From Halobacteroidaceae bacterium (GTDB lineage: Bacteria > Bacillota > Halanaerobiia > B1SED10-174), in contig PWGV01000183.1 of NCBI GenBank assembly GCA_003554585.1, positions 8,574 to 72,573 of the forward strand: a stretch of 64,000 nt of DNA, written 5' to 3'. The notes under the pieces are model-generated. The model saw only the letters and a list, made by a program, of their open reading frames with translations, searched no databases and had not been told where the DNA came from. Positions 18,519-64,000 of the stretch are shown in pieces. The first letter of the stretch is position 1. Each line of letters begins with the position of its first letter. Position numbers and translations under genes: made by a program.

Positions 18519-19724
18519 TTATCGGGTTGTTTCAATCCGGTCCCTTCCTTTGTTTTTTGCCTTGTATAAACCCTTGTCGGCCGCTTTAATAACCTCGCCG
18601 GGAGCTGGGAAATTCTCGTTATCAGCAAGCCCAAAACTCGCAGTTACTTTAATTTTGTTACCCAAACGCCGGGAACTGTTTTTCCCCGGTTTTTTGCGCC
18701 GTCGGTTTTTACCCCTGACGTAAAAAGGCCTCTGGATCATTTTTTCCCGAAGATCTTTTAGGTAGGGCAGGGCTTCATCTTTGTTCTTCCCGGGGAAAAT
18801 TATTGCAAATTCTTCTCCTCCAAAACGGTAGGGCTTACCTGGCCGGGAGTGCTTTTGCAAAATAGCCCCAACAAATTTCAACACCTGGTCTCCAGTAGCA
18901 TGGCCGTAACGGTCATTGACCCGCTTGAAATGATCAATATCGACCATGGCTATACTGAAGGGACTGGAAAGTTTTAAAATGTCCTGTTGTAATGATCTGC
19001 GGGAAGGCAGTCTGGTTAACTCATCGAGATAGGCTAAAATATAAAGATCTATCACCAATCGGAAAATAACAAAGGCAATTAAGGCCAGGTAAAATACAAT
19101 CCAGACCTGGTTTGAAGCGGGATAAAGGAACGGGGAGAAGGAGGCACCCCAGATTGCGCCCAGGGTAACCGGCGTAGGATCCCTTCGAATATAACCCACA
19201 GCACAAAAAAAGAAAAAACCAAGTCCCATTATTGCCAGTAACAGGCTCGCAGGAGAAATGTTACCAGGAGCATCAAAAAACTCGAAATAAATTTTATCCA
19301 GCCAGTCCTGGTTGGGGAAAATAAGCAGAGGAAAGGCAACAAGCTGGATGAGTATAATAAATATCCTGGTTTTCCCCGGGGAAGAGAGAATGCCTTTTTC
19401 CCTGGATAAAGCCAGGTAAAAAAGGTTGCCCCAGAAAATTAAAAGCAAAACAAAAAGGAGCGGGGAGTTTTGAAAATCAGGAGGAAAACCTCCGGAAAAA
19501 TTTATGCCAAAAAGGGAGAGAGCAAACAGGAGGCCCAGGAAAAACCTGGATTTATCAAAAACAACTGTCAGGATTAAAATAACTAAAAAAAGAACAATAA
19601 TTAAAAGCGAGGTATTAAAAACTGGAAAAGATGGTAAAAGCCGGGTAATTAAAAGATAATGAGCTGCAGCAATAAAAAAGAGAGGAGGGATTATGGTTTT
19701 TAAAAATTCTTTTTTGTTAGCCAT
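18519..19724 (-). CDS. Membrane-bound diguanylate cyclase (GGDEF)
   Basis: About 230-aa polytopic N-terminus. Active-site RFGGEEFAIIF. No RxxD five residues upstream. Confidence 0.85.
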   Translation of the reverse strand: MANKKEFLKTIIPPLFFIAAAHYLLITRLLPSFPVFNTSLLIIVLFLVILILTVVFDKSRFFLGLLFALSLFGINFSGGFPPDFQNSPLLFVLLLIFWGNLFYLALSREKGILSSPGKTRIFIILIQLVAFPLLIFPNQDWLDKIYFEFFDAPGNISPASLLLAIMGLGFFFFCAVGYIRRDPTPVTLGAIWGASFSPFLYPASNQVWIVFYLALIAFVIFRLVIDLYILAYLDELTRLPSRRSLQQDILKLSSPFSIAMVDIDHFKRVNDRYGHATGDQVLKFVGAILQKHSRPGKPYRFGGEEFAIIFPGKNKDEALPYLKDLREKMIQRPFYVRGKNRRRKKPGKNSSRRLGNKIKVTASFGLADNENFPAPGEVIKAADKGLYKAKNKGRDRIETTR

Positions 19725-26912: not shown

Positions 26913-28742
26913 ATGCCAACCAAATTGTCCTTTGGAAGAAGGACTCTGTTTCTGTTATTGAGTCTTGTTTTGTTTTTGTTTATTCAGGGTTGCGATTCCA
27001 TAACAGGTGATAGTTACAAGCTTTTTGTGGAAGTTGAAGGGAAAGGGTTAGTTGAAATTTCACCGAAAACCTCTACTTATCAACCGGGAACTGAGGTTAG
27101 TTTAAAAGCAGTTACTCCCCCTGATGGGGAATGGGAGTTTTCCCACTGGAGTGGAGATGTTTCGAGTAACGAGGAAGAAATAAGCATAATCATTGAAGAG
27201 GATGTCCTGGTAGTAGCGTATTTTGATTTAATCAACGGAGCTTCTTTAGAAGGAAGTATTACTATCCAGCATTCCTGGCCCAACTCCCCCAATTTTTCTG
27301 GAAAGCAAAACACTGCCTCCAGTTCTGAAAAAATATCGGTATCGGAAGGGGAGTATAAAAGGGACGAACTAATTATCCAGTTGATGCCTTTCTCTGCAGC
27401 AGCAGAAAAGATTAATGTTGCTAACGCTCTTGGGGGAGAAATAATAGGGGAAATTAAAGAACTGCAAAAGTTACTGATAAGTGTCTCCGGAGATGCAGTG
27501 GGGATAGTGGCCAGGGCCGAAAAATTACCCGAAGTAATAAGTGTCCAACCCAACTATATTTATCAAACCCAGGATAAAATTCCCAACGATCCCTTCTTTT
27601 CTCATCAATGGCACTACCCCCTGATCAGACTCCCCCAGGCCTGGGAAAAAACTGCAGGGAGCGGAAGTATTAATATTGCTGTTTTGGATACAGGGGTTGA
27701 TGGTAACCATCCTGACCTGGATAAGGTTGTTCAGGGTTATAATTTTATAGATGATAATGAAGATCCCATGGATTATAACGGGCACGGAACTCATGTTGCC
27801 GGTACCATAAGGGCAGCAACAGATAATAAAAGCGGAGTTTCCGGAGTCATGTGGCAGGGCAATATTGTTCCCGTGAAAGTTTTGGGTGATAACGGTTATG
27901 GTACTACCTATAGTGTTGCCCGGGGAATTTTATATGCTTCCGATCTTCTGGAAACCCTTAAAAACCCCAATCCCGCCCAGGTAATCAATATGTCTTTAGG
28001 AGGAGATCCTCCTAAAGACGACACGCTGGAGAAAGCTGTTAAAAAGGCCAGAGAAAATGGAACAATTCTTGTGGCCTCGGCTGGTAACACCGATGAAAGC
28101 CAGCTTGGCTACCCCGCAGCTCTGGAAGATGTTATTTCCGTTGGTTCTGTTGCTTACAGTTCTTCAGGTCCCCCGCCCCGAGCAAGCTATTCCAATTACG
28201 GCGAAGATCTGGATATTGTTGCTCCCGGCGGTGGTCATGGTAGCGGAGTGCTGAGCACATATTTTTCCGGCAATGGAGATAATAAAACATATCAATACGG
28301 ATATATGATGGGGACCTCCATGGCTGCTCCCCATGTTTCTGGAGTGATTGGCCTGATGCTTGGTGTGGGGATTCCCGAGAGAGAAATCCGGGAAATTCTC
28401 CATAAAACAGCAATGGATTTGGGAGAGGAAGGATTTGACCCTGAATTTGGCCACGGTCTTGTTAACGCTAACTGGGCGGTCAACGGGGTTGATAGTATAA
28501 GAATTATTATTGGAAAGAAGGAGGGAAATACATTCAAATCCCTTGCTGAAAAAACAATTTCCCTTGAAGATAAATTTTTTGCAATACCTGAAGTTGTTCC
28601 TGGAGAATATCGGGTTTATGCCTGGATCGACATTGGAAATAACGGTATTCTCGAACCGGGAGATTATTTTGCAGAATCAGAGTTAATTTATTTTGGCCCC
28701 GGGCTGGAGGTTACTGTGGACCTGATTTTGCAGGAATTTTAG
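26913..28742 (+). CDS. Secreted S8 subtilisin-family serine protease with N-terminal InlB-B-like repeat
   Basis: Signal or lipoprotein-like leader (..FIQGCDS). Catalytic D (AVLDTGVD), H (HGTHVAGT), S (GTSMAAPHVSG). 609 aa. Confidence 0.9.
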   Translation: MPTKLSFGRRTLFLLLSLVLFLFIQGCDSITGDSYKLFVEVEGKGLVEISPKTSTYQPGTEVSLKAVTPPDGEWEFSHWSGDVSSNEEEISIIIEEDVLVVAYFDLINGASLEGSITIQHSWPNSPNFSGKQNTASSSEKISVSEGEYKRDELIIQLMPFSAAAEKINVANALGGEIIGEIKELQKLLISVSGDAVGIVARAEKLPEVISVQPNYIYQTQDKIPNDPFFSHQWHYPLIRLPQAWEKTAGSGSINIAVLDTGVDGNHPDLDKVVQGYNFIDDNEDPMDYNGHGTHVAGTIRAATDNKSGVSGVMWQGNIVPVKVLGDNGYGTTYSVARGILYASDLLETLKNPNPAQVINMSLGGDPPKDDTLEKAVKKARENGTILVASAGNTDESQLGYPAALEDVISVGSVAYSSSGPPPRASYSNYGEDLDIVAPGGGHGSGVLSTYFSGNGDNKTYQYGYMMGTSMAAPHVSGVIGLMLGVGIPEREIREILHKTAMDLGEEGFDPEFGHGLVNANWAVNGVDSIRIIIGKKEGNTFKSLAEKTISLEDKFFAIPEVVPGEYRVYAWIDIGNNGILEPGDYFAESELIYFGPGLEVTVDLILQEF

Positions 28743-28993: not shown

Positions 28994-30176
28994 GTGGATG
29001 CTATTGATAAAAATACTCTTCAGGTTTTCAGCCTGGGCCGCTTCGAAGTCAGGAGAGGCGGACAGCCTATCTCCCAGGAAGAACAACGTTTGAATAAAAG
29101 ATGGCGACTTTTCCAAATATTAATTACTTATAAAGGGCAGGCCTTATCATCGGAGCAAATGTATAAATATTTTTCCCTGGAAGAGAGTGTTAACCCCTCT
29201 GAGGCTTTGAAGAGTCTTGTTTTTTATCTTCGACGCTCTCTGGAAAAGGACAAAGGTAAAATAAAAAATGGGGAACAGTATATTATTTGTTCCCAAGGGC
29301 GTTATTTATTCAATGAAAAATCACACTACTGGCTTGATGCTGAAGTATTTGAAAACCTGTGTAAAAAGGGTAGGCAGGTTGCGGAGGAATCAGCTGCAGT
29401 AGCCATTGATATGCATCTTGAAGCCCTTTCACTTTACCGGGAAATTACCTTAGGGAAGTTCCACATGCTTACTGGGCTATTTCTGCCCGCAATCATTACC
29501 GGGAACTCTATCTACGGGCTATGCTGGAGGCGAATGAACTATTTAGAAAGGAAGCAAGGTATGAGAAGCCTGGGAACTTTGCGAAGCAGGACTGCGTATT
29601 GTTCCCCTGGAAGAAAAACTCCATACTAGTTCCCTGAAAGCCTTGATTGATGGGGGGAAAGCTGGGCTGGCTTTAGTCCAGTATCAAGAAGCAGCTTCTT
29701 TATTCAGGGAAAATGGGTTGGATGTTCCTGCAGCTTTAAAGGGCCTGGGAGAATCTCTGAAAAAAGAAAGCAAAAAACAAGAAAAACCAGAAGAAATTTT
29801 GCGAAAGTTGCAGGCGAGAAGTCGGGAAGAAGGGGCTTTTGAAAGCGGTCTGGAGAGTTTTTCATTGATCTATGAACTGGAAAAAAGTAGAAGTGAACGG
29901 AGGCAAAAACCCGGCTACCTTGTTTACTTGAATTTAAATGGGGAATGCCCGGATTCTGAAGTTTCGCGGGTTGGCAAAAGCTTAAAAGAATCTTTAAAGA
30001 AAAATTTGCGCAAAGGAGATGTTTTTTGTAATTGGAGCCCAAGGAATTATCTGGCTATTCTTATAAATGTTCCTTCGGGGGAGATAGGTAAAATTATGGA
30101 GAGAATTAAAAATAATGTAACCCGGGAATGTGCTGGTACTGAAATGGAATTTGAGCACAGGCGGAAGGAAATATAA
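28994..30176 (+). pseudogene. SARP-like (wHTH+BTAD) regulator with degenerate GGDEF C-terminal domain, two frameshifts (paralog copy 1)
   Basis: Paralog of 60159-61370 and 63858-end. The reading goes frame 2 to frame 1 (G-run near 29438) to frame 0 (near 29567), which restores ..SLYRGNYLREVPHAYW..RYEKAWELCEAGL... The C-terminus has RKGD-VFCNW-SPRNY in place of RxxD-x5-GGDEF. Confidence 0.75.
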
Positions 30177-30424
30177 GGGAGACCTGCGAGGGGCTCCTTT
30201 TTATTTTGGTTAGATATTCTTTTACCAGCACTGCAAAAACAGGGAGAAAAAAGTTTGTGTTAGGGAGCCCCCCCTAAAGAAGGTTCTTTTTCTTATAACC
30301 TTAATCTAACCTGATTTTAACCCTTGAATAACTGACAGGGTTAAAAAGGGGTGTTATACTTCAAGTAAAGAGGGTGTATTAGCATAGGCGGATAGTTGCT
30401 TCTGGGGAATAGGGGGACTTAAAA

Positions 30425-30709
30425 GTGGCAGAGGAACGCTTGGTTGTTGAAAAAAAACTAGTTTTTTCAATAAAAATTTATTCCCGGAATGGGCTTGATA
30501 TTCAGGGAGAAATTAAGAATATAGGATCCGGTGCCCAGGAGAAATTTAATGATTTTTTTGAACTTGCTTATATTTTAGAAAAATATCTTGAACGAATTAA
30601 CCCCGATTTTTCCATTGAAAATGCGAGATCCTGGGACAATGATGAAGGTTCAGTTGATAAACAGGGGGAGCGCTTGTTTAAATTTATGCGGAGTTTAAAG
30701 CCCTTTTAA
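30425..30709 (+). CDS. Small conserved cytoplasmic protein, divergent member of the WQGEI/FRSxLEM family
   Basis: 94 aa. GTG after AGGGGGA. Shares the pattern F.I.I....QGEI...F..F.EL..IL...LE...RSWD with 30711 and 61580. Confidence 0.6.
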   Translation: MAEERLVVEKKLVFSIKIYSRNGLDIQGEIKNIGSGAQEKFNDFFELAYILEKYLERINPDFSIENARSWDNDEGSVDKQGERLFKFMRSLKPF

Positions 30710-30710
30710 A

Positions 30711-31001
30711 ATGAATGAGGGAGTGAAAACGTTGTCCCCAAAGACAGGTGATAAGAAAAAGAAAATTGGTTCCACAGATTTCCTGATTCGCGTCCAGTTC
30801 CGGCAGCATTCAACCTGGCAGGGAGAAATTCAGTGGCTGGGTGTTAAACACGAGCGGAGACGTTTTTTCCGGAGTTTTTTGGAAATGGTAATGCTAATCC
30901 AGGAAGCCTTAGAAAAAGAAGGTAAAATAGAGCCGAGTATTACTTTGCAAAACTGGGATGAAATCCAGGAGAAACTTTTAAAAACAAGACCCGCGGAGTA
31001 A
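30711..31001 (+). CDS. Small conserved cytoplasmic protein (WQGEIQW...FRSFLEMVMLIQEALEK)
   Basis: 96 aa. An alternative TTG start at 30732 follows GAGGGAGTG. Close paralog of 61580-61843. No signal peptide. Confidence 0.7.
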   Translation: MNEGVKTLSPKTGDKKKKIGSTDFLIRVQFRQHSTWQGEIQWLGVKHERRRFFRSFLEMVMLIQEALEKEGKIEPSITLQNWDEIQEKLLKTRPAE

Positions 31002-31015
31002 CCTAAAAAGGTAGG

Positions 31016-32382
31016 GTGAAAATCATGGAAAAGAAAAACACCTTGCTGATTTTAATAACAATTTTCTTGTTAGCAACGTCGGCAGGAGCGGCTGACCGAC
31101 CAGCAGTTGATTTCGGCACGTATACCGCCCCACAAGAAATTAGTAAGACGGTGGCGGTTCTTGTGCCCCTGGCCGATGAGGGGTGGAGTACCTGGAAGTG
31201 TGGCTGGAAAGTTTACCCGCAACAGAAGATAGGTTGCTCACCCTGGAAGGACAGCGGTTGAAGTTAGAAACCCGTGGATGGATATACTGGGTGGATATAG
31301 ACCCGGTCGCTATTCCCACGGAACATCAAATGCTGACCGATGATAATACAACCGCCCTGCCGTTAATGGTAACCTATACAATTAAACCGCAGGATAGGCC
31401 GGGGCAATATAGAACAGTTCTGGTTATGCGGGAGATGGGCAGTGAAGGTCTGATTAAAGAAAGATCTCTTCCCATTCGTTTGCAAATTAATCCCTGGGTG
31501 AAAATTGAAACAGTTTCTGGAGACGTCCCTGTAGGGAGCTGGGGAGAAGAACCGGGGATTTTAATTAACCGAATTCCCGGTGAAGTTAGAGTGGGTTCCA
31601 ACTCCAACTGGCAACTTTTCCTCGAATGTTTCCCGATAGAAGAATTAAAATCGGGAGATTTGGAACTGGTCCTGATGACCGGGGAGGATAGTGGATTTGA
31701 GGGTCTTACCCAGCTTTCAGTTCGGCTCAAAGAGGAGCAAATTCTCCTCGGTGGGGGGAGGGCCGACATATGTTATGATTGGAATGTTAATGAAAAAAAT
31801 GAACTAGTTGAATATGAAATGGGAACTTTAAAAGAAACCCTGGATGGGTTAATCCGTTTCAATCCCCGGCGATCTTCTCTGGAACCTTGGGAATCGCAGA
31901 TAGTAAGAATTACAATAAATTTCCCCGAAGGTGAGGGGGAGCCTTTTGAGCGAAGGGGGATTATTTTTTTCGAGCACGAGGAAGAGGCCGAAATGGAGGA
32001 ATGGTTAGGGGCTGTTATTAAAACAATGATTGGCGCTATCATTTATGCAAGGCCCAGCGAATTCAGTTTTAATTTCCTGCTGATAGAAGGTTTAGTATTA
32101 AGCGGTCCCAGTGGCCAACAGGTGGCAGCTCTTCTATTGGGAAATCCTTCATTTGTTCATGCTCGCTTTACTATTGATTACAGGGTAGTAACTGCGGAAG
32201 GGGAAATTTTCGAGGAAGGAGAGGTAACGGAAAAGGTTTTTTTACCGGAAACAGCAAGAACAATTTATATTCCTTTTCAAAAACCATATCCGCCCGGAGA
32301 ATACAGATTAATTCTTGAATTGAAATTTACCGACATAGATTTTAGGTTGAATGAAGTTGTTTCTTTTCGAGTTGAAGATTAG
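31016..32382 (+). pseudogene. Secreted hypothetical protein (~455 aa) with one apparent frameshift
   Basis: A signal peptide ORF (31016-31261; probable ATG at 31025) overlaps a 399-aa ORF (31183-32382) in another frame. The junction is a G4 run at about 31179-31182. I recognise no family. Confidence 0.55.
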
Positions 32383-32503: not shown

Positions 32504-33989
32504 TGTTGAGGGTCAAGACATAGGTAACACTTTAGGGCCAGGACATAGGTTACACTTATAACCAATAATTAGGAAAATTTCAGTTTTTAACAACCATTTT
32601 AGGTCAGGACATAGGTAACAGTTTAATGTTTAAATAGGGGCAACACATAGGTTACAATTTGCCCAGTGTCTAAATCATCCTTGAGGTGATTTAGATGCCA
32701 TATCAAGAACAACAGCGTCAAGAAGCCATGCAGCGTTATCTTTCCGGTGAGAGCATTTCCAGTATCTGCAGGGATTTTAAGCGGAGCCGAAAATGGTTTT
32801 ACAAGTGGCAAAAGCGGTATGAATCAGGGAACCCGTATTGGTATAAGGTTGAAAGCCGGGAACCTCGTGAAAAGCCCCGGAAAATTGCTCCTGAAGTTGA
32901 AGAAACTATTATTCAGGTTCGTCGCAAACTAAAACAGGATAAGTATGCCCGGATTGGCCCCCAAATGATTGACTGGGAATTGAGAAGGTTAGGTTATGAT
33001 CCTCCTCCTTGCCTTTCAACTATCAAAAGGGTTATTCGTCGAAATAAGCTTGTTACAAGGCTTGAGCGGTATGAGAAGAAGGGGACTACATACCCCCAGA
33101 TTCCACCTCTTTTCCCAAATACAATACATCAAATAGATTTTTGGGGTCCTCGTTATATTAAAGGAGATGGAAGGTTCCACAGTCTTAATGTCATGGATAT
33201 TTATACTCGCAGGGTTAGTACTTACCCTGCCAGGCGCAAAAGAACCCAAGAAGCTTTAGAAGGCATCAATACTGTCTGGAAATTGATGGGAGCCCCGGAG
33301 TTTATGCAATTTGACAATACCCTGGCATTTAGGGGTAGTAATAGATACCCCCGTTCTTTTGGGCCTGTTATTAAATGGTGCCTGAGACATAGAATACAAC
33401 CGGTCTTTATACCCTTTGGTGAGCCCTGGAGAAATAGTCATTTAGAAAAGTTTCACCACACCCTTGAAAAGCAGTTTTTTCGGCGGATCAATTTTAATAG
33501 TTTTACTAATTTGGTCCAGGAAATAGAGGGGTTCAAAACCTATCATAATCAGCATTACCGTTACAGTCCACTTAACGGATATACCCTTGAAGAAGTATAT
33601 GAGCGTGATCGAATTTGTCCAGATGCTTCCCTGGGAACAGATTTTTCCATGGATGAGGATATTCCTTTAGAAGACGGCTACATTCACCTTATACGGTTTA
33701 TCCGCAGTGATCGTAAACTTAATATTTTCGGCGAAACTTTCCCGGTACCTAAAGAATTAGAATATGAGTATGTGGTAGCAACAATATGCACAGATAACCA
33801 CTTTATCAGGGTCCATGATAACCAGTGGAAATCCCTTTTCACCATACCGAATTCCCATCGACAGTTTGTAACCTATGTCCTGGCCCTAAAAGGGTTTTAG
33901 GAAAATCCACGGCCCCTAGGGGCCGTGTAACCCATGTGGTGATCCCCTAAAGCCATTAGGAAGTGTAACCTATTTGATGGACTTCAACA
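32504..33989 (+). mobile_element. IS481-family insertion sequence
   Basis: Imperfect terminal IRs, TGTTGAGGGTCAAGACATAGGTAACAC / GTGTAACCTATTTGATGGACTTCAACA. Flanking 6-bp near-repeat TGTACT / TGTAAT. Subterminal repeats ACATAGGT(A/T)ACA, 4 left and 3 right. Single rve transposase gene. Confidence 0.75.
32695..33900 (+). CDS. IS481-family DDE (rve) transposase
   Basis: 401 aa. N-terminal HTH. Catalytic residues in IHQIDFWGP, MQFDNTLAF and WRNSHLEKFHHTLEK. Confidence 0.85.
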   Translation: MPYQEQQRQEAMQRYLSGESISSICRDFKRSRKWFYKWQKRYESGNPYWYKVESREPREKPRKIAPEVEETIIQVRRKLKQDKYARIGPQMIDWELRRLGYDPPPCLSTIKRVIRRNKLVTRLERYEKKGTTYPQIPPLFPNTIHQIDFWGPRYIKGDGRFHSLNVMDIYTRRVSTYPARRKRTQEALEGINTVWKLMGAPEFMQFDNTLAFRGSNRYPRSFGPVIKWCLRHRIQPVFIPFGEPWRNSHLEKFHHTLEKQFFRRINFNSFTNLVQEIEGFKTYHNQHYRYSPLNGYTLEEVYERDRICPDASLGTDFSMDEDIPLEDGYIHLIRFIRSDRKLNIFGETFPVPKELEYEYVVATICTDNHFIRVHDNQWKSLFTIPNSHRQFVTYVLALKGF

Positions 33990-36276
33990 TGTAATTCTTA
34001 AAATCAAGACCGAAATTCAAGACCTTTGGTGGGATGATTTTTTGAGATTCTTGATAAGCAGGACTACATCCTTTTGCCTGTTGCTGAAATTTCTAGGTAT
34101 CTGGACCTGCAACCCCGTTATTTTCGCGAAGAAAATCCCCTTTATATTGAACATGTTCCCAGTAGCAGGAGTGCCAGGATTGACTTAAAATTGGGTATTT
34201 ATGAAGGGTACCCTGAACTATCAGCCCAACCTCCAGTTCAGCACGAGGGGGACTTTTTTGTTTCCTCTTCTTTAATCGAAAGCCTTACCGGGGGCAAATT
34301 AGCTGGAACCCAAGGCGACAGGAGGTAACAATTTTCCCGAGTGGAGAATTAGTTCCGTCCGGGCCTTTACTTCGATTTCTGGAGAGGCCAGCCCGGGAGA
34401 TACAGTTACTCTTTATGTTAATGAACGCCGGGTTGACGAAGTATATGTTTTCAGAGGAGAACAGTCCTATAAATTCGAGGAAGTTTCTTTGATTTCCAAC
34501 CGCATTAACACTATCAGGATTGAAATCAGGAGGTTTGACGGGGAAATTGTGGAGATAGAAAAGCAAATACCAGGAAGCCCCAATATCCTGGAAGAAGGAG
34601 TTTGGGAATACCTTGTTTTCCTTGGAAGGTATGGAGGAAAAGGTGGAAGAGATTATAAAGGTGATATTGTTGGACAGGAAATGAAATTTGCAATTACCGA
34701 TCGGGTTACGGGAACCTGGGAATTGCTGGGTTAAGGGATTTTGATTCGAGCGGTGAGCCCAAGGATTTTGTTGAGGTTGGTAATGTACTAGGACTTGCTT
34801 TATGGCCCTTTGATGCTCCCCTGCTTTTTTCAGTTGATTGGCTTACTGGTGGAATATTCGGGGAACTGGCCCATGGATTCAGGTCAGCAATGCTTATTAC
34901 ACTGGAAAAAGGCTATTTTGAACTGGGTTTCTCTTATGTCCCTCCCCCAGTAACGGTGGGAGTTAGAGAAGATTCCGGGGTTAATGTTTGGACAACCCTG
35001 GATTATGAATTATCTCCTGATTATGGTTTATCCTTAACTGGTGAACTATATCGACCCCTTTGGGATTTGGAATATAAAACCGGCCAGAAGGTAGAGACAA
35101 CGGTCAGTTATCGAGACGGCAGAAGATTATCCCTGGCAGTTACGGGAGCTCTGGGGCATCGTTTTTATATTGATAAAGATACAAGCGGAAAGGATCGTTA
35201 CAACGATATTATCGACCTGGATTTAATTTTTGAACACAGGTCCTTTACACCAGGAGGTTCGACCCGGAGCAAAATAGGTTTTCTGGGGGGATACCTTTAT
35301 CCCGGCGACCATCACCCGTATTTATTATCCAATGTTATTTTCGACCTGGGTTTCACCAGGAACCTTACTGATGATTTTCTGGTAGGAGGCAATGCCAGTA
35401 CTTCTGCTTTTTGGTTGGGAACGAAATTTGAGGAACTGAAAGTAAGAGCTGATGCCAGAGCGAGAATTACGGCAAGCGATAATTTAATAATTACGGGGAC
35501 GGGGTTACTCGAGGGAGAGGGAGAGCAGGAAAATGATGATCTGGTGGAAGCGGGAAAAATAGAACTGGGGATTTCAGCTACCTATTATTTTTCCCGTCAG
35601 TTTTATACCACGGGGGAGTTAAAATGTACCCGTTTACCCCAAACCGAGGATGCTTTTTACACCAGCAAGGGTACAGTTTTTTATAATAACCCGGATTTGA
35701 ATCTTAGATTGTCCCTGCGAGGGGAATACCTGACTCCAACAAATTTCAGGGAAGTGCCTCAAATAAAAGCAGGGATAACCGCAACAAAAACTTTTTCATC
35801 CGGCTTGGGTATTTCTCTGAATGCTGCTCGAACTTACCGTTCCGCAACAGCCGTAGCACCTGAATATACTGTTGGATTTTCAATAAACCAGACAATTGGC
35901 TTTGCCGGCGGGAATATTTTCGGTCAGAGATACCCTTCAGGCACAGACCACGTTTCTTTTATCGCAGGTGTTGTTTACCTTGATGAAAATGGGAATGGCA
36001 TTCGGGATAAAGGAGAGCCATTACTTTCCGATATACCCATTCTTCTTGATCGAAGAAGGATCAGGACGGATGAGGAGGGAGGGTTCTTTTTTGAAAGGAT
36101 CAGACCTGGATTATATGAAGTGGGTATTGATCCTGCCCAGCTATCTGGAGAATACCAGATAATTACTCCGAAGAAGGTTGTTCAGATCCGAGAAAATGAG
36201 AATATTTTCCTTGAGTTCGGTGTAACTAAGTCGGAGTAAAAAGGAAAAAGTACTAACAAAAAATAGAGGATGAAAT

Positions 36277-59729: not shown

Positions 59730-60158
59730 GAGTAAAACCTTTTTTGGTAAAATAACCCAATTGGGTAATGGAGAAAGTGAAATTTAAAAAAGGAATTAGG
59801 CGGCTTAAGATTAAATAATAATATAAACCTTCTTAATGAAGAATATTTTTGAGCAAAGAAATTTTACCCAGCCAGATTTTTAGCCATAGTTCCATTTTTA
59901 ACAGGTGAACTTTCTAATAAGCATTTTTGCTTTTTTGTTTAAATGGAAAGTATTTCCGTAAAAAAAAGTTTAAAAAGTGAATCCTAAAAATATAAACACA
60001 AAAATTATTTTTTGAGGTGCAAAAAGACCGATTACAAAATATTTAGTAGCCCAATTACTTGATTTTTATTGGCTGCGTGGGGGAGTTTTTGGTCATTAAT
60101 TGCATCTTTTTATATTGTCAGAGCTACGGATAATCTAAAGGATTGGGGTGGAAGAGCT

Positions 60159-61370
60159 TTGGGTGGGCAGGAACAAAAACAATTAAAAATCTTTACCCTT
60201 GGCAAGTTTCAGGTTTTTACAGGGGAAGAAAACCTGACAAAAAAATATCCCAAAAGCAGGAGACCCTGGCTTTTATTTCAGTTTCTATTAACCAATGCTG
60301 GGCAATCATTGTCTTCAGAAATTGTTGTTGGAACTCTCTGGCCGGCCACCAATTATGAAAATCCGCAGCATTCATTACGAAATCTTGTATACCGGTTACG
60401 TCAAATGTTGAAGGATGAAGGAAACGGAGATAGGTACATAATTCAAACCCAGGGTAATTATTCCTTTAATACCCGGTCTAATTACTGGTGTGATTTTGAA
60501 GAACTGGAGAAACTTTTAGAACGTGCTTTTTCTTTAAAGGATAAGGATCCCCAAAAAATAAAGTTACTCGAAAAAGCATATCAACTTTACGGTGGGGAGT
60601 TTCTTCCCTCCAGACCCTACGAGGAATGGACAGTGAACCTTCGGCTTTACTGCCAGAGGATTTTTCTTAAGGTAGTAGTTGAACTAAACCGCCTCTACGA
60701 GGAAAAGAACCAGTGGAAAAAAACAATAGCCCTGTGTGAAAAAGCCCTTGAATTTGAACCTTTTGAAGAAAATCTTCACTGGAGTTATGTGCAGTCTCTG
60801 ATAAAAACTGATCAGAAGGCCCGAGCAAAAAACCACTACCATCAGACCCACGCTCTTTTTCAAAAAGAGTTGGGTGTTAGTCTGGGGTTTGATATTGATG
60901 AGATGATTAATAAACATAATAACTTTGAGCCGAAAAATTCATCTTCAACATGGGGCGATTTCCAGGAAATTTTAGAGGAAAAAGAAGAGGATAAAGGGGC
61001 ATTCATTTGCGATGGCGAAAATTTCAGGATGATATACCAGCTTGAAGAAAGGCGAGCGGAGAGAAACATAAGAAAATCAAGCCTTGCTTCCTTACAACTA
61101 ATTGCCCCTAAGGGGAAGAAATTACCAGAAGCAGAATTGGATGAAAAAAGCCGGATATTGCAGGGGACTCTTTTGAATTGTCTGAGAAGGGGTGATGTTA
61201 TCTTTCCCAATAAGCCGGGCGAATTTCTCCTTTTACTGGTTGATGTTCCTCCGGATAAGGTTGATAAAGTTTTAAACAGGATAGCCTCCAAATATTACGA
61301 GAATAGTCCAGATGATGAAGTGAGAATTAATGTAAGGCATCGCCCGTTATTACAAGGAGGAACAATTTAA
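60159..61370 (+). CDS. SARP-like (wHTH+BTAD) regulator with degenerate GGDEF domain retaining RxxD (paralog copy 2, intact)
   Basis: LKIFTLGKFQV..LRNLVYRLRQML (wHTH). YQLYGGEFLP..W (BTAD). C-terminal RRGD-VIFPN-KPGEFLLLLV. The ORF opens at 60069, but by comparison with the paralogs the probable start is TTG 60159 after GGTGGAAG. Confidence 0.75.
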   Translation: MGGQEQKQLKIFTLGKFQVFTGEENLTKKYPKSRRPWLLFQFLLTNAGQSLSSEIVVGTLWPATNYENPQHSLRNLVYRLRQMLKDEGNGDRYIIQTQGNYSFNTRSNYWCDFEELEKLLERAFSLKDKDPQKIKLLEKAYQLYGGEFLPSRPYEEWTVNLRLYCQRIFLKVVVELNRLYEEKNQWKKTIALCEKALEFEPFEENLHWSYVQSLIKTDQKARAKNHYHQTHALFQKELGVSLGFDIDEMINKHNNFEPKNSSSTWGDFQEILEEKEEDKGAFICDGENFRMIYQLEERRAERNIRKSSLASLQLIAPKGKKLPEAELDEKSRILQGTLLNCLRRGDVIFPNKPGEFLLLLVDVPPDKVDKVLNRIASKYYENSPDDEVRINVRHRPLLQGGTI

Positions 61371-61380
61371 TTTAAAATTA

Positions 61381-61405
61381 GCACCCAAGTGGTGCTTTTT
61401 TTTTG
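61381..61405 (+). terminator. Rho-independent terminator
   Basis: AGCACC-CAAG-TGGTGCT followed by T9. Confidence 0.75.
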
Positions 61406-61495
61406 TTTTTTTTTAAAAAATTTAATTCCTATAAAACCTTTAATAATAAGTTTTTTGGGGTTTTCTGGGAAAATTTTAATTCTAATGAGATTTTC

Positions 61496-61540
61496 TTGTG
61501 ACCAAAACGGGATTGTTTTGTGACACTAAAGAGTTAGAAT
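61496..61540 (+). promoter_or_regulatory. Direct heptamer repeats TTGTGAC-N15-TTGTGAC followed 10 nt later by a -10-like TAGAAT
   Basis: Exact repeats at 61496-61502 and 61518-61524 (22-bp period). TAGAAT at 61535-61540. About 40 nt upstream of the small gene. Confidence 0.45.
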
Positions 61541-61579: not shown

Positions 61580-61843
61580 ATGAGAAAGGAAGGAAAAATC
61601 TGCCACTTAATACCTCCAGGAGGAGCTTCCTTTATTGTGAGGATCCTGAATTGCCAGCAGAATAACTGGAAAGGGGAAATCAGATGGCTGGACGGAAAGG
61701 GTAATGTCTACTTCAGGAGTTTACTAGAGATGGTAATGCTTATCCAGGAAGCTCTTGAAAAACAGGACTTGCATTCTGAGGTGGATGATTTCCGTTCCTG
61801 GACTGAAATTGAAGAGATCACCGAGGGGAAAGAGAGAAATTAA
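61580..61843 (+). CDS. Small conserved cytoplasmic protein (WKGEIRW...FRSLLEMVMLIQEALEK)
   Basis: 87 aa. GCGGGGGA SD. Paralog of 30711-31001. Confidence 0.7.
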   Translation: MRKEGKICHLIPPGGASFIVRILNCQQNNWKGEIRWLDGKGNVYFRSLLEMVMLIQEALEKQDLHSEVDDFRSWTEIEEITEGKERN

Positions 61844-63857: not shown

Positions 63858-64000
63858 ATGGGTATAGATAAAAAAACGCTTCAGATATCAACCCTTGGCC
63901 GTTTTGAGGTAAAAAGAGGAGGACAAAAAATTTCCCCCAAAGACCAGCGACTTGGCAAACGCTGGCGTCTTTTCCAAGTACTTATTACCTTCAAGGGACA
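63858..64000 (+). CDS. SARP-like regulator paralog copy 3 (5' partial, runs off the window)
   Basis: MGIDKKTLQISTLGRFEVKRGGQKISPKDQRLGKRWRLFQVLITFKG closely matches the N-terminus of copy 1. GGTGGTG SD. Confidence 0.7.
   Translation, partial: MGIDKKTLQISTLGRFEVKRGGQKISPKDQRLGKRWRLFQVLITFKG

Follow-up and report, generated by a model that had tools for sequence, protein, structure and literature searches.

The window analysed here, a stretch of 64,000 nucleotides from a soda-lake bacterium, encodes a regulator (copy 2) whose C-terminal part resembles a diguanylate cyclase domain that has lost its catalytic signature. This raises the question of what such a domain contributes to a transcription factor. 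The earlier note had interpreted the protein and a second paralog in the window (copy 1) as SARP-type transcription factors with a degenerate GGDEF domain sensing c-di-GMP via the retained inhibitory site (I-site).

Domain structure of the regulator

The following features were assigned to the copy 2 gene and its 3' flank. Residue numbers refer to the 433-aa ORF that results from the mechanical ORF start at 60069.

60159..61370 (+): copy 2, intact gene of a SARP regulator with a presumably dead GGDEF domain, 403 aa (ORF call; identity of 100% to the 403-aa P0001)
60255..60455 (+): DNA-binding domain of the OmpR winged-helix type, aa 63-129 (27.8 bits for PF00486, above the cutoff of 26.2; fold resembling AfsR and EmbR)
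60489..60905 (+): BTAD domain (bacterial transcriptional activator), aa 141-279 (PF03704, E=1.1e-12; fold match to AfsR)
60927..60956 (+): low-confidence flexible linker between the SARP part and the C-terminal domain, aa 287-296 (pLDDT <50 in the full-length model)
60981..61370 (+): truncated GGDEF-like domain, predicted to be catalytically dead, aa 305-433 (profile search against the PDB, AF2, Foldseek)
61380..61396 (+): hairpin and T-run resembling an intrinsic terminator, 3' of the regulator gene

Both features of the SARP proteins, the winged helix and the BTAD domain, were detected in copy 2 by Pfam matches as well as by fold comparison, in which its BTAD domain matched chains of the AfsR transcription complexes 8K60/8HVR with TMt values of 0.74-0.75. 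The agreement between the Pfam matches and the folds of AfsR and EmbR bears out the assignment to the SARP-type transcription factors, and copy 2 is a “large” SARP-type transcription activator consisting of winged helix, BTAD and C-terminal domain. Residues 1-34 were predicted with a pLDDT below 50 (AF2, 433-aa numbering), and the full-length model reached a pTM of 0.60 compared to 0.83 for the isolated C-terminal domain.

The AF2 model of the isolated C-terminal domain has a pLDDT of 89.9, and its best 50 Foldseek matches in the PDB were all GGDEF domains (TMq 0.53-0.77), so that the structure prediction suggested in the earlier note came out in favour of its GGDEF assignment. According to a search of the family profile against the PDB, 43 of the 45 matched sequences were GGDEF structures (best E=1.7e-11). 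The C-terminal domain of copy 2 alone gave no GGDEF match in Pfam and NCBIfam, and the family profile was required. Among the single sequences compared with the Pfam GGDEF profile (PF00990), copy 1 reached E=0.096 and copy 3, a third paralog, E=5.5e-4, and other family members scored 16-23 bits, below the gathering score of 23.8. The proposed comparison with PF00990 was therefore negative for copy 2 by itself, whereas the family profile matched GGDEF structures significantly.

The C-terminal domain is thus a GGDEF homologue, but one that is truncated after strand β4. Its elements follow the order α1-β1-α2-β2-β3-α3-β4 and comprise about 125 aa in the AF2 model. In comparison to GGDEF domains the C-terminal third with the α4-β5 part is missing and the fold is incomplete there; none of the solved I-site complexes contains a domain as truncated as that of copy 2.

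Catalytic and inhibitory positions of the C-terminal domain

The positions discussed in this section are located in copy 2 as follows.

61062..61064 (+): R332, located where α1 ends and corresponding to R115 of the secondary I-site in tDGC (chain index 26; 147/148)
61185..61196 (+): RRGD, which is the RxxD motif of the primary I-site (R373, D376; conserved in 148/148)
61212..61226 (+): KPGEF at the GG(D/E)EF position (degenerate A-site)
61278..61280 (+): R404 on α3, corresponding to PleD R390 and tDGC R189 and functionally to PelD R402 (alignments; 147/148 plus one Lys)

Conservation was assessed using 148 representatives of 50%-identity clusters with a mean identity of about 25% in an alignment of about 400 aa. 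The GG(D/E)EF position is occupied by KPGEF in copy 2 and by SPRNY in copy 1, and GG[DE]EF is absent from all family representatives (0/148); the loss of the catalytic signature described for the two paralogs hence extends to the family. KPGEF of copy 2 is itself atypical, since the family signature at this place is S-x-S-Q-[YF]. Furthermore, the metal-binding Asp (PleD D327, tDGC D126) corresponds to Q343 in copy 2 and to T/S in 138/148 representatives, and the positions of the guanine-binding Asn and Asp (N335/D344) are unconserved among the 148 representatives. With its substrate-binding positions replaced, the C-terminal domain is predicted to be catalytically dead.

The window positions 61185-61226 (+) translate into RRGDVIFPNKPGEF in copy 2 and the positions 30009-30050 (+) into RKGDVFCNWSPRNY in copy 1. 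Five residues lie between the Asp of RxxD and the first-G position of GG(D/E)EF, which is the canonical spacing. In the HMMER profile alignment to the Thermotoga maritima cyclase tDGC the family consensus LRkgDvvtryskkqf sits on VRRSDVVARYGGDEF; the tDGC numbering in the printed alignment was checked on N134, D143, R158 and G167. An ungapped stretch shared with PleD (9g85_A, 454 aa) pairs R373 with R359, D376 with D362 and R404 with R390, and places KPGEF of copy 2 on GGEEF368-372. Translations and both alignments thus agree with the previously claimed RxxD at canonical spacing in both copies. The mapping of R332 was based on the printed tDGC alignment and the tDGC paper, and a sub-profile of the first 46 residues of the C-terminal domain, used for aligning R332 with WspR/PleD, produced chance matches only (E about 0.7).

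The tDGC paper names 158-RxxD-161 and the secondary-site R115 as the I-site, describes a dimer locked by c-di-GMP and a monomeric R158A mutant, and reports RxxD in only 57% of cyclases. In PelD the exchanges R367A, D370A and R402A each abolish c-di-GMP binding, and GTP is not bound. In the family of copy 2, R373 and D376 are kept in 36/36 close to distant homologues, and among the 148 representatives they are invariant as well, unlike any other column of the protein. RxxD, which according to the earlier note might have disappeared in a wider alignment of homologues, persisted there as the most conserved feature of the protein. C314 and F319 are likewise near-invariant in this alignment and unrelated to the I-site. 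The four I-site residues R373, D376, R404 and R332 are essentially invariant and, judged by alignment, the I-site is complete.

Two readings can be dismissed on the basis of this conservation. A diguanylate cyclase activity of the domain, even a weak one, could be suspected from the NCBI name of P0014 and from E385 and F386 of the signature, which copy 2 keeps. Taking into account the complete lack of GG[DE]EF in the family, the T/S/Q at the metal position, the unconserved guanine-binding Asn/Asp and the missing α4-β5 part, a residual activity is very improbable and was rejected. RxxD at canonical spacing could also be a coincidence or a neutral relic, as four residues of which two are fixed readily match by chance in one sequence, but its occurrence as the sole invariant columns in 148/148 representatives of such low mean identity reduces this probability to virtually nil and refutes a chance retention.

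Paralogs, genomic context and candidate operators

Further features of the window concern the paralogs, a canonical cyclase and the regions downstream of copies 1 and 2.

18519..19724 (-): membrane-anchored canonical GGDEF cyclase with RFGGEEF (I-site RxxD absent, SRPG there)
28994..30176 (+): copy 1, disrupted paralog with RKGD at 30009-30020 (two frameshifts at ~29440 and ~29560)
30296..30360 (+): 11-bp-phased array of four TAACC/TAACT units and a -10-like TATACT (30355-30360), upstream of the small ORFs of copy 1
30425-30709 and 30711-31001 (+): two tandem small ORFs of the WQG family, 3' of copy 1
61486..61540 (+): candidate SARP operator and promoter 3' of copy 2 (11-bp-phased units; published SARP geometry)
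61580..61843 (+): conserved small “WQG” ORF, 87 aa
63858..64000 (+): beginning of the intact paralog copy 3 (392 aa, LRKGD...GRL), which crosses the window end (full gene on L001:6227-7405)

Both paralogs mentioned in the earlier note are present, and a third, intact one begins at 63858. Copy 1 carries the expected RKGD motif but does not represent an intact gene: the ORFs 28994-29629 and 29643-30176 each hold a part of it, and its collinearity with an intact paralog extends across three frames. Its C-terminal domain matched the family HMM with E=5.8e-26. A metagenome scan for copy 1 yielded a match only on a contig from the same sample, which was 100% identical and had the same frameshifts; these may indicate either a pseudogene or a sequencing error. 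The previously noted cyclase at 18519-19724 does possess the GGEEF signature and is encoded on the minus strand. By itself it adds little to the question, because it is located about 40 kb away from copy 2. No convincing EAL, HD-GYP or PilZ genes were detected by a rough motif scan of the window, and an Rfam scan of the window revealed neither a c-di-GMP riboswitch nor any other Rfam family.

The family comprises about 10^3 to roughly 2,000 clusters at 50% identity. Its hosts are mostly Clostridia, including gut Blautia, and Halanaerobiales, and also Dethiobacteria and Tissierellia. In the databases its members are named SARP/BTAD, “hypothetical” or, wrongly, “diguanylate cyclase”, the latter being the NCBI label of P0014. 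The genome profile scan was built from the nine closest sequences. A GGDEF-HD-GYP gene was found directly downstream of the regulator in the loci L009, L011, L012, L013, L015 and L016, and in one clade such a gene always lies directly 3' of the regulator behind SARP direct repeats. These neighbours carry canonical GGDEF motifs. A PAS-GGDEF gene is located near the regulators of L007 and L018, and in one representative (P0170) a live GGDEF cyclase is fused to the SARP and dead-GGDEF module. The enzyme synteny stems from essentially two clades and not from many independent events; together with the live-cyclase fusion it supports a connection to c-di-GMP from a context that is independent of the RxxD motif. 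Genes encoding adhesins, pilins and sortases were detected downstream in L019, L021 and L023.

The candidate operator downstream of copy 2 contains the units TGAGA (61486), TGTGA (61497), CGGGA (61508) and TGTGA (61519) in 11-bp phase, and in the candidate promoter the repeats are followed by TGTGACAC, 8 nt and TAGAAT (-10 at 61535-61540). TGTGA-N17-TGTGAC is not significant alone, as 24/100 shuffles reach it, and the support for the TGTGA repeats of the window comes from their conservation in L002-L004 in a cross-locus comparison and not from the shuffle test. The TAACC/TAACT units downstream of copy 1 start at 30296, 30307, 30318 and 30329; 0/100 shuffles reach this array, which is the only such tile in the window, and phased repeats are rare elsewhere. 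In five loci three copies of TGTAATTAAAA followed by TGTAATTA, 8 nt and TATAAT are invariant. SARP promoters have been described to contain direct repeats spaced at 11 or 22 bp, with 8 bp between the 3' repeat and the -10 element, and in the same context SARPs are reported to be monomeric in solution and to dimerise in a DNA-dependent manner (PMC10936776). This promoter geometry is matched in silico at 61486-61540 and in the five TGTAATTAAAA/TGTAATTA loci.

The small WQG ORF accompanies the regulator in three distant clades; many family members have no WQG neighbour. The WQG protein has no relatives in Pfam, NCBIfam and the PDB, where only chance matches to designed helical repeats were obtained. 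The ORF at 61580-61843 is probably a direct target or a partner of the regulator.

Proposed c-di-GMP sensing and relation to known systems

The best explanation, which we regard as probable, is that copy 2 is a SARP activator with an I-site-only GGDEF domain as c-di-GMP sensor, acting as a cross-linked dimer on direct repeats. c-di-GMP is presumed to be the ligand of copy 2 by homology. An intercalated c-di-GMP pair would contact R332 of one protomer together with RxxD and R404 of its partner and would thereby cross-link two C-terminal domains similar to the inhibited dimers of tDGC, PleD and WspR. Because SARPs exist as monomers in solution and have to pair side by side on 11-bp direct repeats, the flexibly tethered, c-di-GMP-glued dimer of C-terminal domains would promote or stabilise binding to the TGTGA repeats, which lie 8 nt from the -10 element. 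The occupied repeats would switch on the small WQG gene next to them; the genes controlled in other clades would be that of the GGDEF-HD-GYP enzyme or operons for adhesins and pilins. As to the sign of the response, our best guess is activation at high c-di-GMP. I-site GGDEF dimers have two-fold symmetry, whereas the protomers of SARPs line up head-to-tail on direct repeats, so that the coupling hinges on the flexible linker and could equally inhibit. The near-invariance of C314 and F319 is not accounted for by this model.

Two alternatives concern the ligand. The domain might bind no nucleotide at all, the invariant residues forming a salt-bridge network or a protein interface, be it for constitutive dimerisation or for docking of the WQG protein or RNA polymerase, and its GGDEF ancestry being historical. 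This seems rather unlikely: although the WQG protein, which has no known function, co-occurs with the regulator in distant clades and C314 and F319 are conserved outside the I-site, GGDEF domains evidently fold without RxxD, since only 57% of the cyclases have it, the four conserved charged residues are exactly the c-di-GMP contacts in solved or mutated systems, and many members have no WQG neighbour while the link to c-di-GMP enzymes is present. It also appears quite unlikely that the conserved Arg-Asp-Arg(-Arg) site binds another nucleotide such as 3'3'-cGAMP, pGpG, c-di-AMP, (p)ppGpp or GTP. The identity of the ligand does derive from homology only, and GGDEF enzymes producing cGAMP exist: 6d9m, among the best profile matches, is the structure of a GGDEF domain from Geobacter, and PMC6456294 describes Hypr GGDEF enzymes of this genus. 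However, the same residue constellation binds c-di-GMP in every cited system examined, and the syntenic GGDEF-HD-GYP enzymes have canonical GGDEF motifs. GTP in particular is not bound by PelD, and the guanine and metal residues of the A-site are missing in the family.

In Firmicutes c-di-GMP is mostly read by riboswitches, besides a small number of membrane proteins with PilZ or degenerate GGDEF domains, and few protein transcription factors are known there to sense c-di-GMP. On balance, and with some reservation, we favour the view that the regulators constitute a large unannotated transcription factor family, with copy 2 as its founding example, in which c-di-GMP is sensed through a minimal I-site-only GGDEF domain by a SARP, the first DNA-binding protein reading c-di-GMP via the GGDEF inhibitory site, and which is wired to adhesin/pilus genes, to c-di-GMP enzymes (a feedback loop) and to a small protein. 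A published description of a SARP fused to a degenerate GGDEF domain was not found in our literature search, with subscription-only papers lying outside it. If c-di-GMP sensing applies, these widespread SARPs with their integrated I-site sensor would represent a new effector class, and the annotations “diguanylate cyclase”, “hypothetical” and plain “SARP/BTAD” would need correction. The domain would then be a compact c-di-GMP-binding, dimerising module of ~125 aa usable as a biosensor part, and for anaerobes, among them gut Lachnospiraceae, it would become possible to test how surface adhesins, pili and its own turnover are controlled by c-di-GMP. With predicted operators of exact SARP geometry beside the regulator gene, the hypothesis lends itself to direct tests in vitro.

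Receptors with a degenerate GGDEF domain that bind c-di-GMP via the I-site include YdaK of Bacillus subtilis, PssE of Listeria and SgmT of Myxococcus. PelD of Pseudomonas aeruginosa and PopA of Caulobacter crescentus are likewise dead GGDEF-type I-site receptors; PelD keeps RxxD and the downstream Arg, and PopA uses RxxD for c-di-GMP. Receptors of the PelD/PopA type are fused to GAF and membrane segments, REC or kinase modules instead of a SARP DNA-binding module, and their outputs are polysaccharide machinery, proteolysis adaptors and localisation, not DNA binding. Compared to PelD and PopA the domain of copy 2 is shorter, ending after β4, and also keeps the secondary I-site Arg, and the SARP family is marked by a separate signature, which comprises GAFxC...F, T/S in place of the metal-binding Asp, and SxSQ[YF]. 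tDGC/TM1788, PleD and WspR have the fold in common with the domain of copy 2, and their four I-site residues are identical and identically placed. However, these enzymes are active and use the site for product inhibition, whereas a catalytic site is lacking in the SARP family and the cross-linking would provide the input of a transcription factor.

BldD of Streptomyces is a repressor that binds tetrameric c-di-GMP via RXD-X8-RXXD motifs of an unrelated small helical domain without GGDEF ancestry. The concept of a transcription factor dimer glued by c-di-GMP is shared: according to PMC4151990, a c-di-GMP oligomer glues the otherwise non-interacting C-terminal domains of this DNA-binding protein. 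AfsR (SARP-NOD-TPR) and EmbR (SARP-FHA) have the same N-terminal winged helix and BTAD followed by a C-terminal regulatory domain, but their sensors are an ATPase/TPR part or a phospho-threonine-binding FHA domain in place of the dead GGDEF domain. They belong to actinomycete hosts, whereas the present family occurs in Clostridia and Halanaerobiales and its presumed targets are not antibiotic clusters. The target promoters of AfsR and EmbR contain direct repeats at 11 or 22 bp, of which the 3' repeat is placed 8 bp from the -10 element, as does the candidate promoter downstream of copy 2.

Regulator copies and their domain organisation

Both RxxD peptides reported in the earlier note were recovered by translation in copies 1 and 2 of the regulator (window:30009-30050, RKGDVFCNWSPRNY; window:61185-61226, RRGDVIFPNKPGEF), but copy 1 is not an intact gene, its ORF being broken with collinear tblastn matches over three frames.

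Regulator genes
60069-61370, plus strand: long ORF of copy 2 (433 aa; used for residue numbering)
28994-30176, plus strand: copy 1, called as ORFs 28994-29629 and 29643-30176
63858 to past the window end, continuing at L001:6227-7405: copy 3, a complete paralog (392 aa, LRKGD motif)

Copy 2 probably starts at 60159 (403 aa), since a recorded 403-aa protein is 100% identical to it and the AlphaFold model shows disorder over residues 1-34 of the long ORF. In copy 1 the collinear matches to the intact paralog occupy three successive reading frames, thus indicating two frameshifts, near 29440 and 29560. These may reflect a real pseudogene or a sequencing error, as the second contig that is identical in this region, frameshifts included, derives from the same sample and does not distinguish between the two. 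Copy 1 rather than copy 2 is the nearer relative of copy 3; copies 1 and 3 carry Ser at the near-invariant Cys314 position.

An IS-type transposase (HTH and rve integrase core; 32695-33900) lies about 2.5 kb downstream of copy 1, and this paralogous cassette is perhaps in decay. An ORF of 81 aa whose beginning resembles a signal peptide (31016-31261) overlaps a 399-aa ORF without Pfam match (31183-32382); the two are possibly a single secreted protein broken by a frameshift. An SdrD_B-like protein (34890-36239) and a secreted S8 protease with InlB-type repeat (26913-28742) suggest a surface-protein neighbourhood for copy 1.

Copy 2 comprises an OmpR-type winged helix (aa 63-129) and a BTAD (aa 141-279; Pfam), and the nearest structures to its full-length AlphaFold model (pLDDT 84.6) are the AfsR SARP domain in transcription-initiation complexes (8K60/8HVR, TMt ~0.75) and EmbR; based on these domains and the modelled resemblance it is assigned to the SARPs. 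The C-terminal ~125 residues have no Pfam match, and those of relatives match below threshold only. Alignment to GGDEF had been named beforehand as a test of the C-domain (aa 305-433), and a profile of 36 homologues searched against all PDB sequences indeed matched essentially GGDEF domains alone, with the Thermotoga maritima cyclase tDGC as best hit (E = 1.7e-11). The C-domain is likewise predicted to fold as GGDEF (pLDDT 89.9, pTM 0.83), the best 50 PDB structural matches all being GGDEF (50/50). Its model has the order α1-β1-α2-β2-β3-α3-β4 and stops after β4; therefore it lacks the final third that a normal GGDEF domain has. In the full-length model a flexible link joins it to the SARP part.

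Among the PDB matches is 6khu ('DGC protein from Thermotoga maritima', 131 residues), which aligns with the truncated C-domain over almost its full length (TMt 0.69, rmsd 2.6); it is perhaps a short GGDEF of natural or engineered origin.

Conservation of the I-site

In the profile alignment LRkgDvvtryskkqf falls on tDGC VRRSDVVARYGGDEF. The tDGC numbering equals the chain index +89, an offset checked on N134, D143, R158 and G167 named in the tDGC paper.

Copy 2 residues and their tDGC counterparts
R373: R158, RxxD of the primary I-site (product-inhibition site)
D376: D161, RxxD of the primary I-site
R404: R189, α3 arginine
R332: R115, secondary I-site
Q343: D126, metal-binding Asp position
KPGEF 382-386: GGDEF 167-171, degenerate active site

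Aligned without gaps to PleD, R373, D376 and R404 correspond to R359, D362 and R390. In the receptor PelD (KD ~1 µM) c-di-GMP binding is abolished by R367A, by D370A and by R402A. Copy 2 proves to be a SARP with a flexibly tethered, catalytically dead, truncated GGDEF domain that has a complete I-site.

R332, R373, D376 and R404 are invariant in 36/36 homologues at identities down to ~23%. An exhaustive HMMER search with the C-domain profile against 1.84 billion cluster representatives returned 2,297 proteins at E ≤ 1e-10, the best 150 of which are mostly ~400 aa long with the C-domain at the C-terminus. When 148 of these representatives were aligned, R373 and D376 were the sole invariant columns of the whole protein; R332 and R404 were each kept in 147/148, the remaining representative having Lys for R404. 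The metal-Asp position is T or S in 138/148, and the GGDEF position reads S-x-S-Q-[YF] (Q in 144/148), GG[DE]EF occurring in none of the 148. RxxD is present in 57% of cyclases according to the tDGC paper. From these residue counts catalysis is lost family-wide, with the complete I-site as the most constrained part of the protein.

Residual cyclase catalysis was considered excluded given the missing GG[DE]EF and the substituted metal-Asp, as was a chance retention of RxxD given the invariance of R373 and D376. Rival readings are that the C-domain binds another nucleotide or that its role is purely structural or in protein-protein contacts. The I-site model leaves unexplained C314 (140/148; 61008-61010) and F319 (147/148; 61023-61025), which are near-invariant and sit in a GAFxCDxxxF motif that takes the place of the DxLTGLxNR with which normal GGDEF domains begin. 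The SARP fold, the GGDEF homology, the lost catalysis and the complete conserved I-site support, as far as computation reaches, the c-di-GMP-sensing SARP proposed in the earlier note.

Members are named in databases 'AfsR/SARP family transcriptional regulator', 'BTAD domain-containing putative transcriptional regulator', 'hypothetical protein' and, wrongly, 'diguanylate cyclase'. A SARP or other DNA-binding protein with a dead-GGDEF I-site domain was not found by full-text searches for this fusion in freely accessible literature, nor in a 2025 review of c-di-GMP effectors, which names PelD and PopA as GGDEF I-site receptors. Given this literature and these names, the family is placed between two known kinds which it combines, I-site receptors and large SARPs; in the latter, the additional C-terminal domains presumably modulate the SARP domain.

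Gene neighbourhood and candidate operators

The GGEEF cyclase claimed in the window is present and is its only canonical GGDEF.

Features near the cyclase and copies 1 and 2
18519-19724, minus strand: GGEEF cyclase, 401 aa, full GGDEF domain (PF00990 3e-28; RFGGEEF)
61380-61396: putative terminator 3' of copy 2
61486, 61497, 61508, 61519: candidate operator 3' of copy 2, four 11-bp-phased units (TGAGA, TGTGA, CGGGA, TGTGA)
61580-61843: small WQG ORF 3' of copy 2
30425-30709 and 30711-31001: small WQG ORFs 3' of copy 1

The cyclase retains all catalytic motifs and has ~225 hydrophobic N-terminal residues without Pfam family; because SRPG replaces RxxD, it is probably free of product inhibition. 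A c-di-GMP riboswitch was not found, no Rfam family reaching its gathering score in the whole 64 kb.

In six loci of a Clostridia and Tissierellia clade (L009, L011, L012, L013, L015, L016) the regulator is directly followed by the gene of a (PAS-)GGDEF-HD-GYP enzyme in which the motifs RDEDIISRVGGDEF and HDIGK...HHERWDGKGYP are intact; L009 has two such genes. The six regulators share 64-86% mutual identity (L015 equals L016 over the shared part), and two Halanaerobiales loci encode a PAS-GGDEF a few genes upstream; this synteny represents essentially two evolutionary events, not eight. In the homologue P0170 (637 aa), found in the representative search, SnoaL, PAS and a canonical, active GGDEF precede the C-domain; P0103 (500 aa) shows another architecture of the I-site-only module, REC-BTAD-module. 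Blautia-type, P0015 and P0010 loci encode VWA/SpaA, FctA, or CLIPPER and sortase surface proteins downstream, which are typical c-di-GMP outputs. Taken together, these neighbours and the P0170 fusion point to c-di-GMP as the signal.

SARPs are monomers in solution and form side-by-side dimers on direct repeats spaced by 11 or 22 bp, with 8 bp separating the 3' repeat from the -10 element. In front of the GGDEF-HD-GYP genes lies an intergenic region, not otherwise alignable, with an invariant block of TGTAATTAAAA three times in 11-bp phase, 22 bp, then TGTAATTA, 8 nt and TATAAT. This operator-like block is found at the loci of this group (e.g. L012:3072-3180) and, since it directly follows the regulator and precedes the enzyme gene, suggests a c-di-GMP feedback loop in this clade. 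Downstream of copy 2, TGTGACAC, 8 nt and TAGAAT repeat the geometry of the TGTAATTA block, the repeat boxes and -10 being kept in three orthologous loci. TAACC occurs four times in 11-bp phase downstream of copy 1; 0/100 shuffles reached this pattern, nor did any other 450-bp tile of the window.

Dimerisation of the C-domain would favour cooperative occupation of the phased repeats, which in turn would activate the adjacent promoter. Activation is a guess, because a symmetric C-domain dimer could also lock the DNA-binding domains into an unproductive geometry.

The three WQG ORFs form one uncharacterised family of ~80-95 aa (consensus F.V.V..Q..(S/T)WQGEI.W...F.S.LE(M/L)..LI..AL) without relatives in Pfam, NCBIfam or PDB. 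It also trails regulators of only 27-35% identity (P0010 locus, Blautia). Members follow the regulator in three distant clades, including L023:8416-8921 and L019:8300-9194, and there is one internal tandem duplication (149 aa).
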